From a virus (lineage: Duplodnaviria; Heunggongvirae; Uroviricota; Caudoviricetes): a stretch of DNA of 64,000 bases. Every line of letters begins with the position of its first letter. Positions within the stretch are counted from its first letter, which is position 1. A program made the translations under genes and the position numbers. The notes below the pieces were generated by a model that saw only the letters and a list, made by a program, of their open reading frames with translations, did not search any database and was not told the DNA's origin. Where the stretch lies: the IMG/VR virus record IMGVR_UViG_3300031555_002904; one strand, given 5' to 3'. Positions 1-64,000 of this stretch are shown here, piece after piece.

Positions 1-312
1 AGATTAACACATATTCCTACTGGCATTGTGGTGGGGTGCCAGCAAGAGCGAAGTCAACATCAGAACAAAGAAAAAGCCATGAAGATGCTTATCTCAAGGC
101 TGGTTGCTATTAAAGAAAAAGAACACTATGACAACTTGTCTGAAATTCAGGGCGAGCAGAGTCGAATCGAATGGGGCAACCAAATTCGTTCTTATGTCTT
201 TATGCCATATCAAATGGTTAAAGACCACAGGACTAACCACCAAACTTCTAATATTGACGCAGTGATGCGTGGAGATATAGATGAATTCATTTTCAAGAGT
301 CTCGCTGAATAA
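1..312 (+). CDS. prfB: peptide chain release factor 2 (RF2), C-terminal fragment; 5' end lies outside the window
   Basis: Translation [29 protein letters not shown]...[23 protein letters not shown]...[11 protein letters not shown] closely matches the bacterial RF2 C-terminal domain. It is in frame from nt 1, ends TAA, and an intrinsic terminator follows. Confidence 0.85.
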
Positions 313-331
313 GCGAGGCTCTTTTTTTGTT
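297..331 (+). terminator. intrinsic terminator
   Basis: Hairpin agagtctcgctgaataagcgaggctct followed by a T7 run. Confidence 0.7.
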
Positions 332-431
332 TTGAAACCAATGTTTCATGAACCTGCTCCGGCCGGCATGGGGTGTGGGGACCGACAAGCCCAAAACGAA
401 AAGGCCTCCAACTAATTTTTTGAGCGAATGG

Positions 432-460
432 TTGATAAACATGAAAAAATTTTGTATAAT
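432..460 (+). promoter_or_regulatory. sigma70-like promoter (degenerate copy of the repeat promoter)
   Basis: TTGATAA -35, about 17 nt spacer, TG-n-TATAAT, then RBS and ATG at 482. Confidence 0.5.
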
Positions 461-481
461 ATATTATAAAGGAGTGATTAT

Positions 482-1303
482 ATGCGTTTTTGTGTAAGTG
501 GCAGACAGCCATATTCAGTTATTAAAATTGCTGACGAAATCAAGTTTGCATATGCTGATAAGGATAGAATTCTTGACCTCGTTGAAAAGTACCCTGAAAA
601 GACAGTAATTCTTGATGTTCCCGGCCATGAAGGCGATTGGAAGCTATGGGAAATGTATAGTGAGAAGTTTGCGGAATTCTATATCGCTCTTCATGATTTA
701 AGTAGAGTTGCTGAATTTAATCAAGCTGGTATCAAATGGTATTGGCCTTATCCAATTACATCTTATTATGAGTTATCAATGATTGTTAATTTGCATCCAA
801 GTTATCTGATGATTGGTCCTCCGCTAACATTTGATTTGGATAAGATTGTTCCCCATACATATGATGATAGTGTCGAGGAAAATGCAACACCAATTCCTTT
901 GCGAATGGTGGTTAATGTTGCGCATCCTGCATATCTCCCAACCAATGGGACACACGGTATGTGCGGCCAGTGGGTGCGCCCGGAAGATGCTAACTTATAT
1001 GCAACCCGCATCAACTGTTTTGAGTTTGATGAATGCGCTACCCTAAAGGAAGAAGAGGTTCTATTGAATACTTATAAGTCTGGCACATGGCCCGGTAACT
1101 TGAATCTAATTATTAAAAAGTTAGATTTCAACGTTGATAATCGCGCAATTCCAGAAGAATTGGGAGAAAGACGAATGACTTGCGGCCAACGATGCTGGTC
1201 TGGCTCAGGATGTCATTTGTGTGTGAGCGCGTTTAGGTTTGCCGACCAGATTCGAAAAGAGCACCTTCGTCGCAACCAGAAGGACGATATTGACAATAAT
1301 TAA
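482..1303 (+). CDS. hypothetical protein
   Basis: 273-aa ORF with an AGGAG RBS and TAA stop. I do not recognise a family. Confidence 0.6.
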   Translation: MRFCVSGRQPYSVIKIADEIKFAYADKDRILDLVEKYPEKTVILDVPGHEGDWKLWEMYSEKFAEFYIALHDLSRVAEFNQAGIKWYWPYPITSYYELSMIVNLHPSYLMIGPPLTFDLDKIVPHTYDDSVEENATPIPLRMVVNVAHPAYLPTNGTHGMCGQWVRPEDANLYATRINCFEFDECATLKEEEVLLNTYKSGTWPGNLNLIIKKLDFNVDNRAIPEELGERRMTCGQRCWSGSGCHLCVSAFRFADQIRKEHLRRNQKDDIDNN

Positions 1304-1347
1304 AAAAAATGGTATAATATAATATAAGAGATAAAAGGAGGATACTT

Positions 1348-60825: not shown

Positions 60826-63351
60826 ATGGCTGTAAAAACTTACACAAAAGGAATTGCAACTAAATTAAGCACAAATTTTAAGTCTACTGAATTTGACTGT
60901 CATGGATCTGGTTGCTGTTCTAAAACTTTAGTTGATGACAAATTAGTGGAATATTTACAAAAAATCAGAGACCATTTTGGCAAGCCTGTAAATGTAAGTT
61001 CTGCTTATCGTTGTACTACACATAATAAAAATGTTGGTGGAGCAACTGGCTCTCGTCATATGAAAGGCCAAGCTGCAGATATTTATATTACAGGAGTAAA
61101 ACCTGCCGAAATTGCCAAATATGCTGAATCTATTGGTATTTTAGGCATTGGTTTGTATGAAACTGATAAAGATGGTCACTTCGTCCATGTGGATACTAGA
61201 ACTACTAAATCTTTTTGGTATGGTCAAGCGCAAGCTAAACGCACTACTTTTGGAGGCGCAGTAACAACCGCTACTCCTCAAAAAGAATTATACCGAGTAA
61301 GAAAAACTTGGGCTGATAGTAAATCTCAATTAGGTGCATATAGCATTTTAGATAATGCAAAGAAGACTTGTGATAAAGCTGGTGTTGGTTATTATGTTTT
61401 TAATTCAAAGGGGGAAATTGTATATCCAGTAGCAAAAGAAGAGAAAGAAGAAAATGCTATAATCATTGATACCTCTAAGGTTAATACAAATGCCATTGAT
61501 GAAAAAGTAATGTGGAATTATTTTAAATCTAAAGGCTTAAATGATTATGGTATTGCTGGTTTAATGGGAAATCTTTTTGCTGAATCTGGTTTACGTCCTT
61601 GCAATTTACAGCAGACCTATGAAAAATCTCTTGGTATGAGTGATGCTGAATATACTGCCGCAGTAGATGCAGGAATTTATACTAACTTTATTAATGATAA
61701 AGCTGGTTATGGTTTGGCTCAATGGACCTATTGGAGTTTGAAGCAAGAAATGCTCACTTATTTCCAAGCCAATAAAAAATCTATTGGTGATGGTACTACT
61801 CAGATGGAATTCCTATGTCACCAATTGTCAACTAGCTACAAATCTGTATGGACTACTTTACAAACAGCAAAATCTGTTTTAGAAGCTTCTAATGCAGTAT
61901 TATTAAAATTTGAGCGTCCCGCCGATCAAAGCGAGGCCGCACAAAACAAGAGAGCAGGATATGGTCAAAAATATTATGACAAATATGCTGTTAAAGAAGA
62001 AGTTAAAATTGAAATCCCAAAAGAAGGAGGAAACGGAAAAATGAAGTATTCTGCTTCTAATAAACCCCTTGTATGCATGCAAACTCAAAGCACTTGTTAT
62101 AAAGGAACAAGTAAAATGACTGTTAAAGGCGTTTTATGGCATTCTACTGGTGCTAATAACCCTAATTTAAAGCGTTATGTGCAACCAAGTGACAATGCTT
62201 CTGATAAAGAGGAAATGTTAGCATTATTAGGTATAAATCAATATAAAAATGATTGGAATCATATTGAACGTCAAGCAGGATTAAATTGTTGGATCGGTAA
62301 ATTAGCTGATGGAACTGTTGCTACTATATAGACAATGCCTTGGGATTATAAGCCTTGGGGTTGTGGTAGTGGTTCTAAAGGGTCTTGTAATAGTGGTTGG
62401 ATTCAGTTTGAAATTTGTGAAGATGGATTAACTGATAAAACCTATTTTGATAAAGTCTATAAAGAGGCATGTGAAATTACTGCATATTTATGTGATATGT
62501 TTGATATTGATCCTTTTGGTACCGTCCGTGTTAATGGTATTGACGTTCCAACTATCTTATGTCATGCAGATTCTTATAAGTTAGGATTAGGCTCCAATCA
62601 TGGTGATATTAATCATTGGTTCCCTAAATTTGGTAAATCAATGGAAACTGCTCGTCAAGATGTTGCTGATTTAATGGGAACTAAAGTATCTGTAATCGAA
62701 CCAGCTGAGCCCGATAAAAAGGACGATGTACCTGCGGCCGCACCCTCTAATGAAATGTATCGTGTAAGAAAGTCATGGGAAGATTCAAAAAGTCAAATTG
62801 GAGCATATAGTCAATTACAAAATGCAAAAAATGCTTGTGATAAAGCTGGTATTGGATATTATGTCTTCAATTCCAAAGGAGAAGTTATTTATCCTGAACA
62901 GCCAAAGAAAAACGAAGTCATTGAGGCTGTAAATGATTTACAATTAGGTTAGGCAGTATCTTTAAAAAATGGAGCAAAATATTCTTCTGGTGCTTCCATT
63001 CCTTCTTGGTTATTTGGTAAGAAATTATATGTGCGTGAAATCCGTGATGACGGTAAAGTCGTATTTTCTACTTTAGCTTCTGGAGATATTACTGGTGTGA
63101 CTTATGCTACTAATTTATTACCTTATAACGGAGATAGTATAGCAGCTCCAAAAGTACCGGAGTTTGAATCTTATTTAGTTAAAATTGTTGCTGATGTATT
63201 AAATGTTCGTGCGGGAGCAGGCGTTTAGTATCGTATTAATACTCAGGTTAAAAAAGGTCAAGTTTATACTATTGTAGGAGAATAGTCTGGTTGGGGCAAA
63301 TTGAAATCTGGCGCCGGTTGGATTTCACTTAACTATACTAAGAAAATTTAA
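60826..63351 (+). CDS. multi-domain endolysin with 4 in-frame TAG codons: M15 peptidase, lysozyme-like domain, cell-wall-binding repeat, amidase_2, second repeat, two SH3b domains
   Basis: SAYRCTTHNKNVGGATGSRHMKGQAADI is the M15 motif; NLFAESG...GLAQWT is lysozyme-like; GWIQFEICE...HGDINHWF is amidase_2; the repeat YRVRKxWxDSKSQxGAYSxLxNAK occurs twice; LNVRAGAGV.Y.I..QVKKGQVYTIVGE.SGWGKL..GAGWIS is SH3b. All share frame 1 with TAGs at 62329, 62950, 63226 and 63280; ends TAA 63351. Confidence 0.6.
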
Positions 63352-63353
63352 TT

Positions 63354-63698
63354 ATGAATAAAAACAAAACTGCTCAAAAGCCCGCACCTAAAAAAGACAC
63401 TGAATTCTCTAAAAGATTATTGATTCAAGAGTCACTTCTCTTATGGGTTGTGACTCTTGCATTTATTATACTCGCTTTTGTATGTATTTCAAATCAATAT
63501 TTTGGTGAATTACCTTGGTTAACTGCAATGGCTATGGCTCCTTGGGGAGCATATGCTGTCGGCCAAGGCTTCTATTACCGAAAAGCAGAAAAAGAAAATA
63601 CTCAAGGCGGTATAAAATATGAAACAGTTATGGCATAGTTGCAAACGAATGATGATGACCCATTAACTGAGTCATTTAGTGATAACGCTGCAGGATAA
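63354..63698 (+). CDS. holin-like small membrane protein (in-frame TAG at 63636)
   Basis: Two TM helices; directly downstream of the endolysin; ORF-track end is a TAG and the frame continues 20 codons to TAA. Confidence 0.4.
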
Positions 63699-63704
63699 AT
63701 TAAA

Positions 63705-63762
63705 CAACAAAAAGGCGAGATAGATGATTATTTTCATCTATCTCGCCTTATTTTTTTTTAGT
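63705..63762. terminator. bidirectional intrinsic terminator
   Basis: Hairpin ggcgagatagatgattattttcatctatctcgcc with A4 upstream and T9 downstream, sitting between convergent genes. Confidence 0.75.
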
Positions 63763-63763
63763 T

Positions 63764-64000
63764 TTAAGTTTTATAAAATATCTCTCCAGTTGCACCAGAA
63801 GAAGGGAGAGAGCTACCATAGTTCTGAACAATAACTTTTTGACAATATAATGGAGCATAATTTCCACTCTACCAACCACCTCGACTAGCTACTCGAAAAG
63901 GTAAAGGGGCATAAGCTGTACTATTACCACTTCTTGGAGTTTCAAAAACTAATCCCCCATTATCAACATACATGCATCCCAAAGTAAATGTTTCAGTGCC
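63764..64000 (-). CDS. minus-strand CDS, 3' portion; continues beyond the window end; contains an in-frame TAG
   Basis: The reverse complement reads ...GTETFTLGCMYVDNGGLVFETPRSGNSTAYAPLPFRVASRGGW[TAG]SGNYAPLYCQKVIVQNYGSSLPSSGATGEIFYKT and ends TAA. Confidence 0.35.

Follow-up and report, generated by a model that had tools for sequence, protein, structure and literature searches.

A tRNA-rich phage genome fragment in which amber is a sense codon, with a suppressor tRNA displaying a glutamine anticodon-like loop in its variable arm

Introduction

The code-15 phages, among them crAss-like, Lak and Agate phages and others, encode suppressor tRNAs and, in some members, release factor 2 (RF2), and their recoded stop codons are enriched in lysis and structural genes (10.1101/2021.08.26.457843; PMC10607447); RF2 is encoded by six Lak and two Agate genomes (10.1101/2021.08.26.457843). 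In the published model the recoded stops gate late and lysis genes, and the code-change machinery is itself written in the standard code (10.1101/2021.08.26.457843). The Jade phages, which reassign TGA to tryptophan, carry upstream of the lysis cassette a 'code change module' made up of a suppressor tRNA, a tryptophanyl-tRNA synthetase (TrpRS) and release factor 1 (RF1); the same study leaves the charging of phage suppressor tRNAs by host synthetases as an open question and does not describe suppressor tRNA structure (10.1101/2021.08.26.457843). Here we describe a stretch of 64,000 nt from the IMG/VR virus record IMGVR_UViG_3300031555_002904 (Caudoviricetes), referred to throughout, at its full length, as the window, in which TAG is a sense codon and in which two suppressor tRNA genes lie side by side, the longer of them with a variable arm whose loop is that of a glutamine tRNA anticodon.

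A tandem pair of the same kind, one short and one long Sup-CTA tRNA, is present in phAss-1 (proposed Phassvirus, 'Caudoviricetes code 15 clade', OQ749652), a phage with 36 tRNA genes, TAG in 28 % of its ORFs (open reading frames), no aminoacyl-tRNA synthetase and a suggested Clostridia host (PMC10607447). Its 72 nt tRNA has a U1.C72 mismatch and G73, and its 88 nt tRNA has the variable arm TTCC-CTCTGAA-GGGG. The tRNA pair is the only part of phAss-1 with detectable similarity to the window DNA (71 % over 124 nt), and most of the phAss-1 TAGs are in virion genes, a gene set that is not in the window. Neither 'release factor' nor 'variable' occurs in the text of PMC10607447, and from the absence of the latter word the extra arm appears to have gone unnoticed there. 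A synthetic amber-suppressor tRNA has also been built in which a variable arm with a GUG pseudo-anticodon recruits histidyl-tRNA synthetase fused to an extra anticodon-binding domain, with modest effect (Mukai 2020; PMC7590224).

The window resembles the code-15 phages in having in-frame TAG codons that align with Gln and a phage-encoded tRNA(CUA), and departs from the named code-15 clades in having no nucleotide match: a megablast search of 40-64 kb against deposited phages gave none, and the window is not placeable among those clades, since the terminase and the rest of the genome lie outside it. With the Jade phages it shares a suppressor tRNA, an RF2-like release factor that would be blind to the reassigned codon, and recoded lysis genes. 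Unlike those phages, which bring their own synthetase, the window yielded no aminoacyl-tRNA synthetase in Pfam and NCBIfam scans; its release factor fragment is about 20 kb from the suppressors, which in turn are about 35 kb from the lysis genes. Relatives are numerous in IMG/VR, mostly on contigs of 80-240 kb. The window very probably comes from a large, tRNA-rich phage that reassigns amber (translation table 15) with the charging and gating mechanism proposed below, and the phage probably infects Bacillota. Its recoding adds one lineage to the known code-15 phages, the phenomenon itself being already well described.

TAG as a sense codon

Sixty-nine genes, one of them on the minus strand, were tabulated from ORFs in which only TAA and TGA counted as stops, from family matches, and from a codon-usage score for which the Pfam-supported genes served as training set. 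TAA terminates 55 of these genes and TGA 14, with none ending in TAG, and 20 in-frame TAG codons are found in 10 of the 69. This bears out an earlier reading made from the letters alone (the sequence-only reading), which had proposed that at least ten genes read through TAG and that genes end in TAA or TGA and never in TAG; in-frame TAGs do lie at the places that it named. The ten genes are listed below; handles beginning with L denote loci of IMG/VR relatives.

3763-4491 (+): Cys-repeat/DUF2726-like protein with two internal repeats, TAGs at 3868 and 3886 in the first (ORF)
20270-20677 (+): PD-(D/E)XK nuclease, TAGs at 20276, 20285 and 20405; PDDEXK_5 match (7-107) spans 20405
29560-30657 (+): tail-fibre-like protein, TAGs at 30079 and 30334; 53 homologues span the first
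36042-36338 (+): small Cys-rich ORF, possible TAG at codon 12 (36075), a weak case (ORF and score only)
55951-56664 (+): metallophosphatase, TAGs at 56545 and 56551 after the conserved domain (Pfam Metallophos, residues 4-160)
56679-56948 (+): small protein, TAGs at codons 4 and 6 (56688 and 56694); homologue in L003
58785-59213 (+): hypothetical protein, TAGs at 58860 and 59124; continuous homologues in L001-L006
59492-60754 (+): PIN-PhoH ATPase, one TAG at 60437 (Pfam PhoH, residues 221-415, profile 8-198 of 205)
60826-63351 (+): endolysin with M15, lysozyme, Amidase_2 and SH3 domains, four TAGs at 62329, 62950, 63226 and 63283 (Pfam)
63354-63698 (+): holin-like small membrane protein, one TAG at 63636; relatives align through the site

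When in-frame TAGs are counted gene by gene against TAA and TGA, a check that had been suggested earlier, neither of the latter interrupts any of the 69 genes. Out of frame in the training genes TAG is the rarest stop triplet (85 occurrences, against 366 of TAA and 668 of TGA), and since all 20 of the 20 interruptions are TAG, random decay is excluded, far beyond chance. Further TAGs at 12770, 15136/15157, 42683/42689, 46494 and 60766 are upstream of likely starts or intergenic and were not counted.

Judged by codon usage, the frame with coding potential is the same before and after the TAGs in the PhoH, endolysin, 58785 and 20270 genes and across the first two segments of the tail-fibre gene, and single Pfam matches run across TAG in four domains (PhoH, Amidase_2, SH3_3 with two TAGs, and PDDEXK_5). 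Relatives fetched from IMG/VR with the N-terminal part of PhoH as query have uninterrupted homologues of the PhoH, endolysin, holin-like, 58785 and 56679 proteins; such in-frame stops as the relatives contain are all TAG and lie at other positions within the same genes. Homologues across the TAGs are likewise continuous rather than separate proteins, 120 of them at the amidase site and 53 at the first tail-fibre site. These findings, with the restriction of all interruptions to the rarest out-of-frame stop and the presence of two tRNA(CUA) genes in the window, make it extremely improbable that TAG is an ordinary stop here and the read-through genes pairs of separate genes, pseudogenes or assembly errors, even though table 11 gives an ORF for each piece (59492-60439 and 60494-60754, for example) and the phosphatase tail beyond its TAGs is unconserved. 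We conclude that TAG is a sense codon in the window.

The PhoH TAG lies, as had been noticed, between Walker A (GPAGTGKT) and Walker B (YISEAQN), with one domain match spanning it, and nine relative loci are continuous at the site, where they have Q, D, N, E or S. The sequence-only reading correctly saw four TAGs in the endolysin gene but placed them between the domains; three of the four are inside domains, the Pfam matches over TAGs being Amidase_2 at residues 431-577 and SH3_3 at 790-837, and the L003 and L007 proteins align in one piece over residues 1-840. At the holin-like TAG site L001 and L002 have Gln (CAA), and a TAG in L003 stands opposite Gln-48 of the window protein. Coding potential is positive in all three segments of the 58785 gene, whose homologue in L005 has three TAGs of its own, and the start of the 56679 product, MSHxIxYIDY, is matched by the L003 homologue start MSHAIRHLDY. 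The two tail-fibre TAGs are present where they had been reported. The first is inside the motif IVGG..xH.E.D.NE, at which the 53 database homologues have A (25), Q (8), T (7) or other residues; the second, in a poorly conserved distal domain, is a weak case.

The nuclease gene at 20270 is a paralogue of those at 9595-10008 and 17352-17759, and alignment of the paralogues supports the ATG at 20270, so that its two N-terminal TAGs are inside the gene. The three PDDEXK_5 paralogues are spread across the tRNA array and have the look of homing endonucleases, and only the copy adjoining the suppressor tRNAs contains TAG.

In the phosphatase gene the two TAGs are present as described; a C-terminal zinc ribbon, also proposed, was not borne out, since the 36-codon tail past the TAGs shows neither a positive coding score nor conservation in L003 or L004. 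Read-through of this gene is a weak case, a candidate only. The 3763 gene has a weak coding score, and its repeats (YWLCxCECGKxK in repeat 1, KWICQCECGNIK in repeat 2), from which Gln had been suggested as the inserted residue, make a weak argument: the second TAG aligns with Ile.

Suppressor tRNAs and release factor fragment

The window encodes components that would match a code with two stops.

1-312 (+): C-terminal 103 residues of an RF2-like class-I release factor, its gene truncated at position 1 (Pfam RF-1 domain)
15608-15828 (+): phage tRNA-Gln(UUG), 15608-15683, and tRNA-Gln(CUG), 15753-15828, used as a comparison pair
20681-20755 (+): suppressor tRNA 1, 75 nt, class I, anticodon CUA at 20714-20716, CCA encoded (ARAGORN; Rfam tRNA, 47.1 bits)
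20756-20852 (+): suppressor tRNA 2, 97 nt, anticodon CUA at 20788-20790, U1-A72, G73 (ARAGORN; Rfam tRNA, 54.2 bits)
20804-20820 (+): variable arm of tRNA 2, CACGG-CUCUGAC-CCGUG, with a 'pseudo-anticodon' CUG at 20811-20813 (fold, family conservation, controls)

The release factor fragment scores 154.9 bits with NCBIfam prfB and 87.8 bits with prfA, and against solved structures (PDB) 115 bits with RF2 and 69 bits with the best RF1. The claim of a release factor 2 gene therefore stands as to its RF2-like character, while what the window contains is a C-terminal fragment of 103 residues and not a gene. It tells against the RF2 identification that it depends on these last 103 residues, the SPF motif, which recognises the codon, and the GGQ motif being upstream of position 1. 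With TAA and TGA the only stops in use, an RF2-like factor would serve exactly these. A search of IMG/VR for relatives of the fragment found none, and a second candidate release factor, at 12698-13984, proved to be an AAA ATPase.

Both tRNA(CUA) genes that had been reported are real. They adjoin with no spacer and both begin UGGGG; tRNA 1 has G10 and tRNA 2 has U10. The minimum-free-energy fold of tRNA 1 is the cloverleaf, with a U1.C72 mismatch and discriminator G73, and that of tRNA 2 has five helices, namely the acceptor stem, D arm, anticodon arm (loop CUCUAAA), variable arm and T arm. Among glutamine identity features, a U1-A72 or weak 1-72 pair, G73, G2-C71 and G3-C70 are present in both suppressors. 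The glutamine anticodon YUG (U35, G36) is absent from the anticodon position in both, the working anticodon being CUA; CUG occurs only in the variable-arm loop of tRNA 2.

The amino acid at TAG

The amidase TAG (62329) falls in the motif G-T-V-x-T-[VI]-Q-T-M-P-W, and all 120 of 120 homologues with 72-86 % identity have Gln there. Relatives have Gln codons opposite the window TAGs at endolysin residue 501, PhoH residue 316, holin-like residue 95 and phosphatase residue 201, and in five conserved contexts the exchange runs the other way, with window Gln opposite a TAG of the relatives (MEFLCHQLSTSYK against MEFLVH*LSTSYK, for example); these five are among 15 window residues opposite a relative's TAG (p = 2e-4). 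Over all TAG-aligned positions Gln has the highest BLOSUM62 sum. The proposal that TAG specifies Gln is thus upheld, and the protein alignments support Gln as the best reading. At many of the other sites the TAG stands at a variable position on the surface (D, N, K, E, A) and carries little information.

Two considerations count against assigning Gln with full confidence: the residue is deduced from alignments, and by sequence alone the suppressors are equally close to the phage tRNA-Trp and tRNA-Gln. Assignment by tRNA sequence similarity was set aside for this Trp/Gln ambiguity, and the protein alignments were used instead. A different residue (pyrrolysine, Trp, Glu, or Leu, Ser or Tyr by way of the long-armed tRNA) nevertheless seems improbable. 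ARAGORN labels both tRNAs 'Pyl', a label that follows from the anticodon alone; a tRNA-Pyl has a tiny D loop, a 3 nt variable loop and a 6 bp anticodon stem, whereas both suppressors have ordinary D arms and anticodon stems of 4-5 bp, and neither pylS nor pylBCD is among the Pfam matches in the window. Without its variable arm tRNA 2 is most like the phage tRNA-Trp; however, the tRNA-Trp-derived amber suppressor su7 of E. coli is mainly charged with Gln. For Leu, Ser or Tyr the long arm of tRNA 2 would fit, but its body is closest to the phage tRNA-Gln and tRNA-Trp, and true Leu/Ser/Tyr-like tRNA(CUA) in other phages (7 of about 73, among the matches listed in the arm-blind scan described below) look different. 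D, N, E or K occupy many TAG positions in relatives and some relatives (L034, L039) have a tRNA-Glu-like CUA tRNA, against which stand the invariant Gln of the amidase site, the top overall score of Gln, the U1-A72 or weak 1-72 pair with G73, and an extra arm that shows CUG or UUG, the two Gln anticodons.

Some relatives have other short tRNA(CUA) (L034:4679-4754, L039:4679-4754, L014:18265-18334 and L051:16087-16157), one of which looks tRNA-Glu-like (5' end GGCCCC...), so that the residue inserted at TAG may differ among relatives.

A proposed pseudo-anticodon in the variable arm

CUCUGAC, the variable-arm loop of tRNA 2, is also the exact anticodon loop of the phage tRNA-Gln(CUG), and the whole variable arm nearly matches the anticodon arm of the phage tRNA-Gln(UUG). 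Compared with tRNA 2, an orthologue (L135:1968-2065) has compensatory changes in four stems, those of the acceptor and of the anticodon, variable and T arms. In relative loci fetched with an AAA-ATPase protein query, and thus unbiased as to tRNA, all of the long tRNA(CUA), 88-91 nt in length, form a hairpin in the variable arm, with a stem of 2-5 bp and a 7 nt loop of the form YU-YUG-MN, that is, a U33-like position, CUG or UUG (the two Gln anticodons) and then usually a purine; the loops observed in relatives are CUCUGAA, UUCUGAG, CUUUGAA, UUCUGCA and CUCUGAC. The RNAalifold consensus of ten relatives predicts the extra hairpin, with pairs changed on both sides.

A scan of IMG/VR with a strict pattern, from which 80 of 100 stretches were listed and pooled with loci already in the set, gave 71 unique sequences, and ARAGORN identifies 68 of these as tRNA(CUA), with 18 different variable-arm stems. 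The pattern places no constraint on the second pair of the variable stem, and this pair is formed in 68 of the 68; position 1-72 is U-A, weak or mismatched in 64. When the G of YUG was replaced by A, C or T the control pattern gave 8 matches and no such tRNA. A second, arm-blind scan gave at least 118 stretches, 63 of them new loci and 55 inferred to be strict-scan loci. Among the matches listed there are about 73 long tRNA(CUA): about 58 fit the strict pattern, 7-8 are near variants with CUG or UUG (by eye) and the remaining 7 are of other kinds, mostly Leu/Ser/Tyr-like, so that in about 90 % of the long phage tRNA(CUA) among these matches the variable-arm loop contains CUG or UUG. The strict pattern occurs at 24 places in 596 Gb of bacterial and archaeal genomes, of which 8 are real, all on contigs of metagenome-assembled genomes (MAGs) labelled Bacillota, Bacilli, Erysipelotrichaceae, Eubacteriales, Mollicutes and Nanosyncoccus; from this the long suppressor class is essentially phage-borne.

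A corresponding pattern for the opal codon TGA, with the anticodon loop CUUCAAA and a variable-arm loop YUCCAMN, gave 14 matches, 4 of which are tRNA(UCA) of 93-96 nt on IMG/VR contigs (L171, L172, L178 and L182). Their variable stems are about 4-6 bp and their loops, CUCCAAA or UUCCAAC, are that of the tRNA-Trp anticodon. Allowing only non-A at the third pseudo-anticodon position gave 40 matches and no tRNA. To our knowledge, phages of standard-code hosts have two reassignments, TGA to Trp and TAG to Gln, and for each of them the anticodon displayed by the extra loop is that of the amino acid predicted to be inserted. We note that ARAGORN mislabels the four long tRNA(UCA) as selenocysteine tRNA (tRNA-SeC).

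Possible role of the extra arm

Glutaminyl-tRNA synthetase (GlnRS) and TrpRS depend strongly on the anticodon, and a suppressor anticodon weakens charging. The E. coli amber suppressors supE and su7 (the latter from tRNA-Trp), which have CUA, a weak 1-72 pair and G73, are charged by GlnRS and insert Gln at UAG; each is a cellular tRNA with a single-base change in the anticodon, lacks an extra arm and is an inefficient substrate. In tRNA 1 the mismatched 1-72 position and G73 would offset the loss of G36, an independent second way of favouring GlnRS. In tRNA 2 U1-A72 and G73 together with the variable arm would compensate for this lost Gln determinant, the pseudo-anticodon being bound by the anticodon-recognising part of the Gln-charging enzyme. 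The extra arm probably helps the Gln-charging enzyme of the host to recognise the suppressor, as far as the sequence comparisons indicate. We put forward tentatively, as a possibility worth pursuing, the fuller reading that the 97 nt suppressor belongs to a widespread, essentially phage-specific class in which the variable-arm loop is a decoy that offers the synthetase CUG or UUG for Gln, or CCA for Trp in the opal suppressors, and the real CUA or UCA is presented to the ribosome.

Several points weigh against this proposal. A variable arm of 2-5 bp cannot put its loop at the real-anticodon site of monomeric GlnRS, and canonical simultaneous binding is doubtful; the arm is also not indispensable, because a short suppressor without it coexists; and the arm may have arisen when an anticodon arm was duplicated and have been kept as a relic, or may bind another factor. 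It is accordingly possible, if somewhat doubtful, that the arm has no charging role at all, being a duplication leftover, the anticodon arm of a tRNA-Gln(CUG) in which a CUA hairpin was inserted between the D and anticodon arms, or the site of another binding partner, for instance an anticodon nuclease, a modification enzyme or some protein of the phage. The two arms of the window tRNA each have a stem of 4-5 bp and a 7 nt loop, and removal of the CUA hairpin leaves a normal 72 nt tRNA closest to tRNA-Gln, as an insertion would; in most family members, however, the CUG/UUG hairpin is 2-3 bp and the CUA arm is always a full stem, which marks CUA as the working anticodon. The geometry and the directly adjoining short suppressor also favour a loop without a role in charging, but the loop is kept while its own stem and all other helices diverge with compensatory changes, the non-G control gave no tRNAs, and the Trp/UCA parallel is hard to explain without amino-acid identity.

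If a charging role is accepted, the likeness to the design of Mukai 2020 is in the idea proposed for tRNA 2, a variable arm that mimics the cognate anticodon arm; the differences are that the window tRNA is natural, that it would be specific for Gln, with natural Trp counterparts in other phages, and that no extra protein domain is known. The literature precedents that we found are that one synthetic design and otherwise mimics in mRNAs and viral tRNA-like structures. No natural variable-arm anticodon mimic was found in a literature search of limited coverage, so a prior description is possible; the Gln pseudo-anticodon arm and its Trp counterpart appear to be an undescribed variant of the recoding machinery.

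Distribution of TAG and a possible timing gate

TAG is unevenly distributed. There are 12 TAGs in 2,431 codons at 55,950-64,000, 3 in 9,631 codons at 24,000-55,950 (Fisher p = 1e-6 between these blocks) and 5 in 3,159 codons of the tRNA region. Fifty-nine of the 69 genes have no TAG and are readable with the standard code, and the description of the recoding as genome-wide was therefore overstated, TAG being confined to a subset of genes. The ratio of the Gln codons CAG and CAA also differs, at 191:73 in the 24,000-55,950 block and 46:45 in the 55,950-64,000 block, and the differences in codon choice and TAG use between the blocks suggest different expression classes or origins. Close TAG doublets (within 3 codons) are commoner than chance (p = 0.004, simulation); they are at codons 3 and 6 of the 20270 gene, 4 and 6 of the 56679 gene and 199 and 201 of the phosphatase gene, two of the three right after the start codon, and may act as tight translational gates.

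The same figures bear on whether the host itself reads TAG as sense and the phage only matches the code of its host, as in the early hypothesis that recoded phages infect alternative-code hosts (PMC10607447; 10.1101/2021.08.26.457843). This seems very improbable for the present phage, in which 59 of 69 genes lack TAG, a 32 kb block is compatible with the standard code and the phage brings its own suppressors and release factor, and in view of the near absence of the long suppressor type from 185,579 species genomes, where the 8 real matches are all on MAG contigs.

For reassignment by the phage, the following course can be proposed. On infection the host would translate the TAG-free genes with the standard code, and the tRNA array would be transcribed. 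The host would charge both suppressors with Gln, through GlnRS or through a non-discriminating glutamyl-tRNA synthetase (GluRS) and GatCAB, and the charged suppressors would then compete with host RF1 at UAG. Only then would full-length products of the TAG-containing genes be made, namely the endolysin, holin-like protein, PhoH, tail fibre and the small proteins with tandem N-terminal ambers, and TAG would be a timing gate on late and lysis functions. The restriction of TAG to a gene subset fits the published gating model. Set against such a gate are the facts that the timing is deduced from gene function only and that two of the TAG-bearing genes are nuclease-like, lie inside the tRNA array and are not obviously late.

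Other features of the window

The window has a G+C content of 42.8 %, and almost all genes are on the plus strand. It comprises three parts: a tRNA array at 4.9-24 kb, with 41 tRNA genes (ARAGORN) and interspersed small genes; an auxiliary block at 24-56 kb; and a lysis-proximal block at 56-64 kb with the phosphatase, an SPFH protein, PIN-PhoH, the four-domain endolysin and the holin-like gene.

4.9-24 kb: tRNA array
16280-16871 (+): ROOL RNA, full-length (312.6 bits, model 1-574 of 574)
16878-17013 (+): 136 nt tRNA match (33.3 bits)
20069-20193 (+): permuted tRNA-like halves
21033-21119: ordinary tRNA-Leu(UAA)
22527-22610 (+): partial OLE RNA match
24003-55948 (+): auxiliary block, almost without TAG and readable with the standard code (Pfam, NCBIfam)
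38923-39786, 43147-44574 and 55403-56664 (+): candidate tRNA/RNA repair genes
41643-42554 (+): RNase T
45726-54063 (+): NAD-metabolism/ADP-ribose gene cluster

Within the tRNA array, the 136 nt tRNA match is immediately 3' of the ROOL RNA and has a type II body like that of tRNA-Leu(UAA), into whose anticodon arm about 58 nt are inserted, the 5' strand of the stem being seemingly duplicated; it may be an intron-containing gene, a disrupted gene or some other unusual tRNA. The OLE match scores 53.5 bits against a gathering score of 50 and covers model positions 439-592 only. The halves at 20069-20193 consist of a T arm and acceptor 3' strand with CCA, a 64 nt insert of two hairpins, and an acceptor 5' strand with a D arm; rather than a permuted tRNA, the region at about 20,060-20,200 is better described as a weak match to the Y-RNA-like YrlA (26.3 bits, E = 0.001; gathering score 69). 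A DUF2828/DUF7788 protein (26886-28445) and a major-vault-protein-like protein (30777-33257) are encoded in the same window, which with the YrlA-like match hints at a ribonucleoprotein theme.

By Pfam and NCBIfam matches the auxiliary block contains, among others, genes for an EcoRI-type methyltransferase, GmrSD/HNH, DUF2828/DUF7788 and major-vault-protein-like proteins, sigma-70, Thg1, RNase T and RNA ligase, and a full salvage set for nicotinamide adenine dinucleotide (NAD), with isochorismatase, phosphoribosyltransferases, SIR2, NAMPT-like protein, macrodomain, NAD synthase, NADAR and nucleotidyltransferase. No protein on record was identical to the sigma factor in an exact look-up. The candidate tRNA/RNA repair genes encode a Thg1-like guanylyltransferase, a DRB0094-type RNA ligase, an AAA_33 kinase and the metallophosphatase, to which the RNase T at 41643-42554 can be added. 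The dense cluster at 45726-54063, which includes YqeY, a nicotinamidase-like isochorismatase and a DarG-like macrodomain and is entirely free of TAG, is plausibly an NAD reconstitution module for counter-defence.

Four of the largest plus-strand genes are shadowed by antisense ORFs, almost as long as the genes themselves, on the minus strand (30798-33143, 43099-44688, 49608-51563 and 56922-58580, of 781, 529, 651 and 552 residues), and at these loci the Pfam matches and high coding score are on the plus strand. The shadow ORFs likely result from strong avoidance of TTA, CTA and TCA codons in genes of higher G+C content.

Implications

For annotation, the immediate consequence is that the endolysin, PhoH and other genes would be broken up under table 11. 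The window is also a clear case in which recoding can stay within a subset of genes beside a large block that is compatible with the standard code. The pseudo-anticodon arm offers a concrete, mutationally testable hypothesis for the question of how these suppressors are charged, one backed by conservation, covariation, negative controls and the independent Trp/opal parallel. If it is true, tRNA 2 would be a natural 'two-anticodon' tRNA and a ready-made natural template for efficient engineered suppressor tRNAs, and its class would represent a general mechanism of stop-codon reassignment for phages that bring no synthetase of their own.

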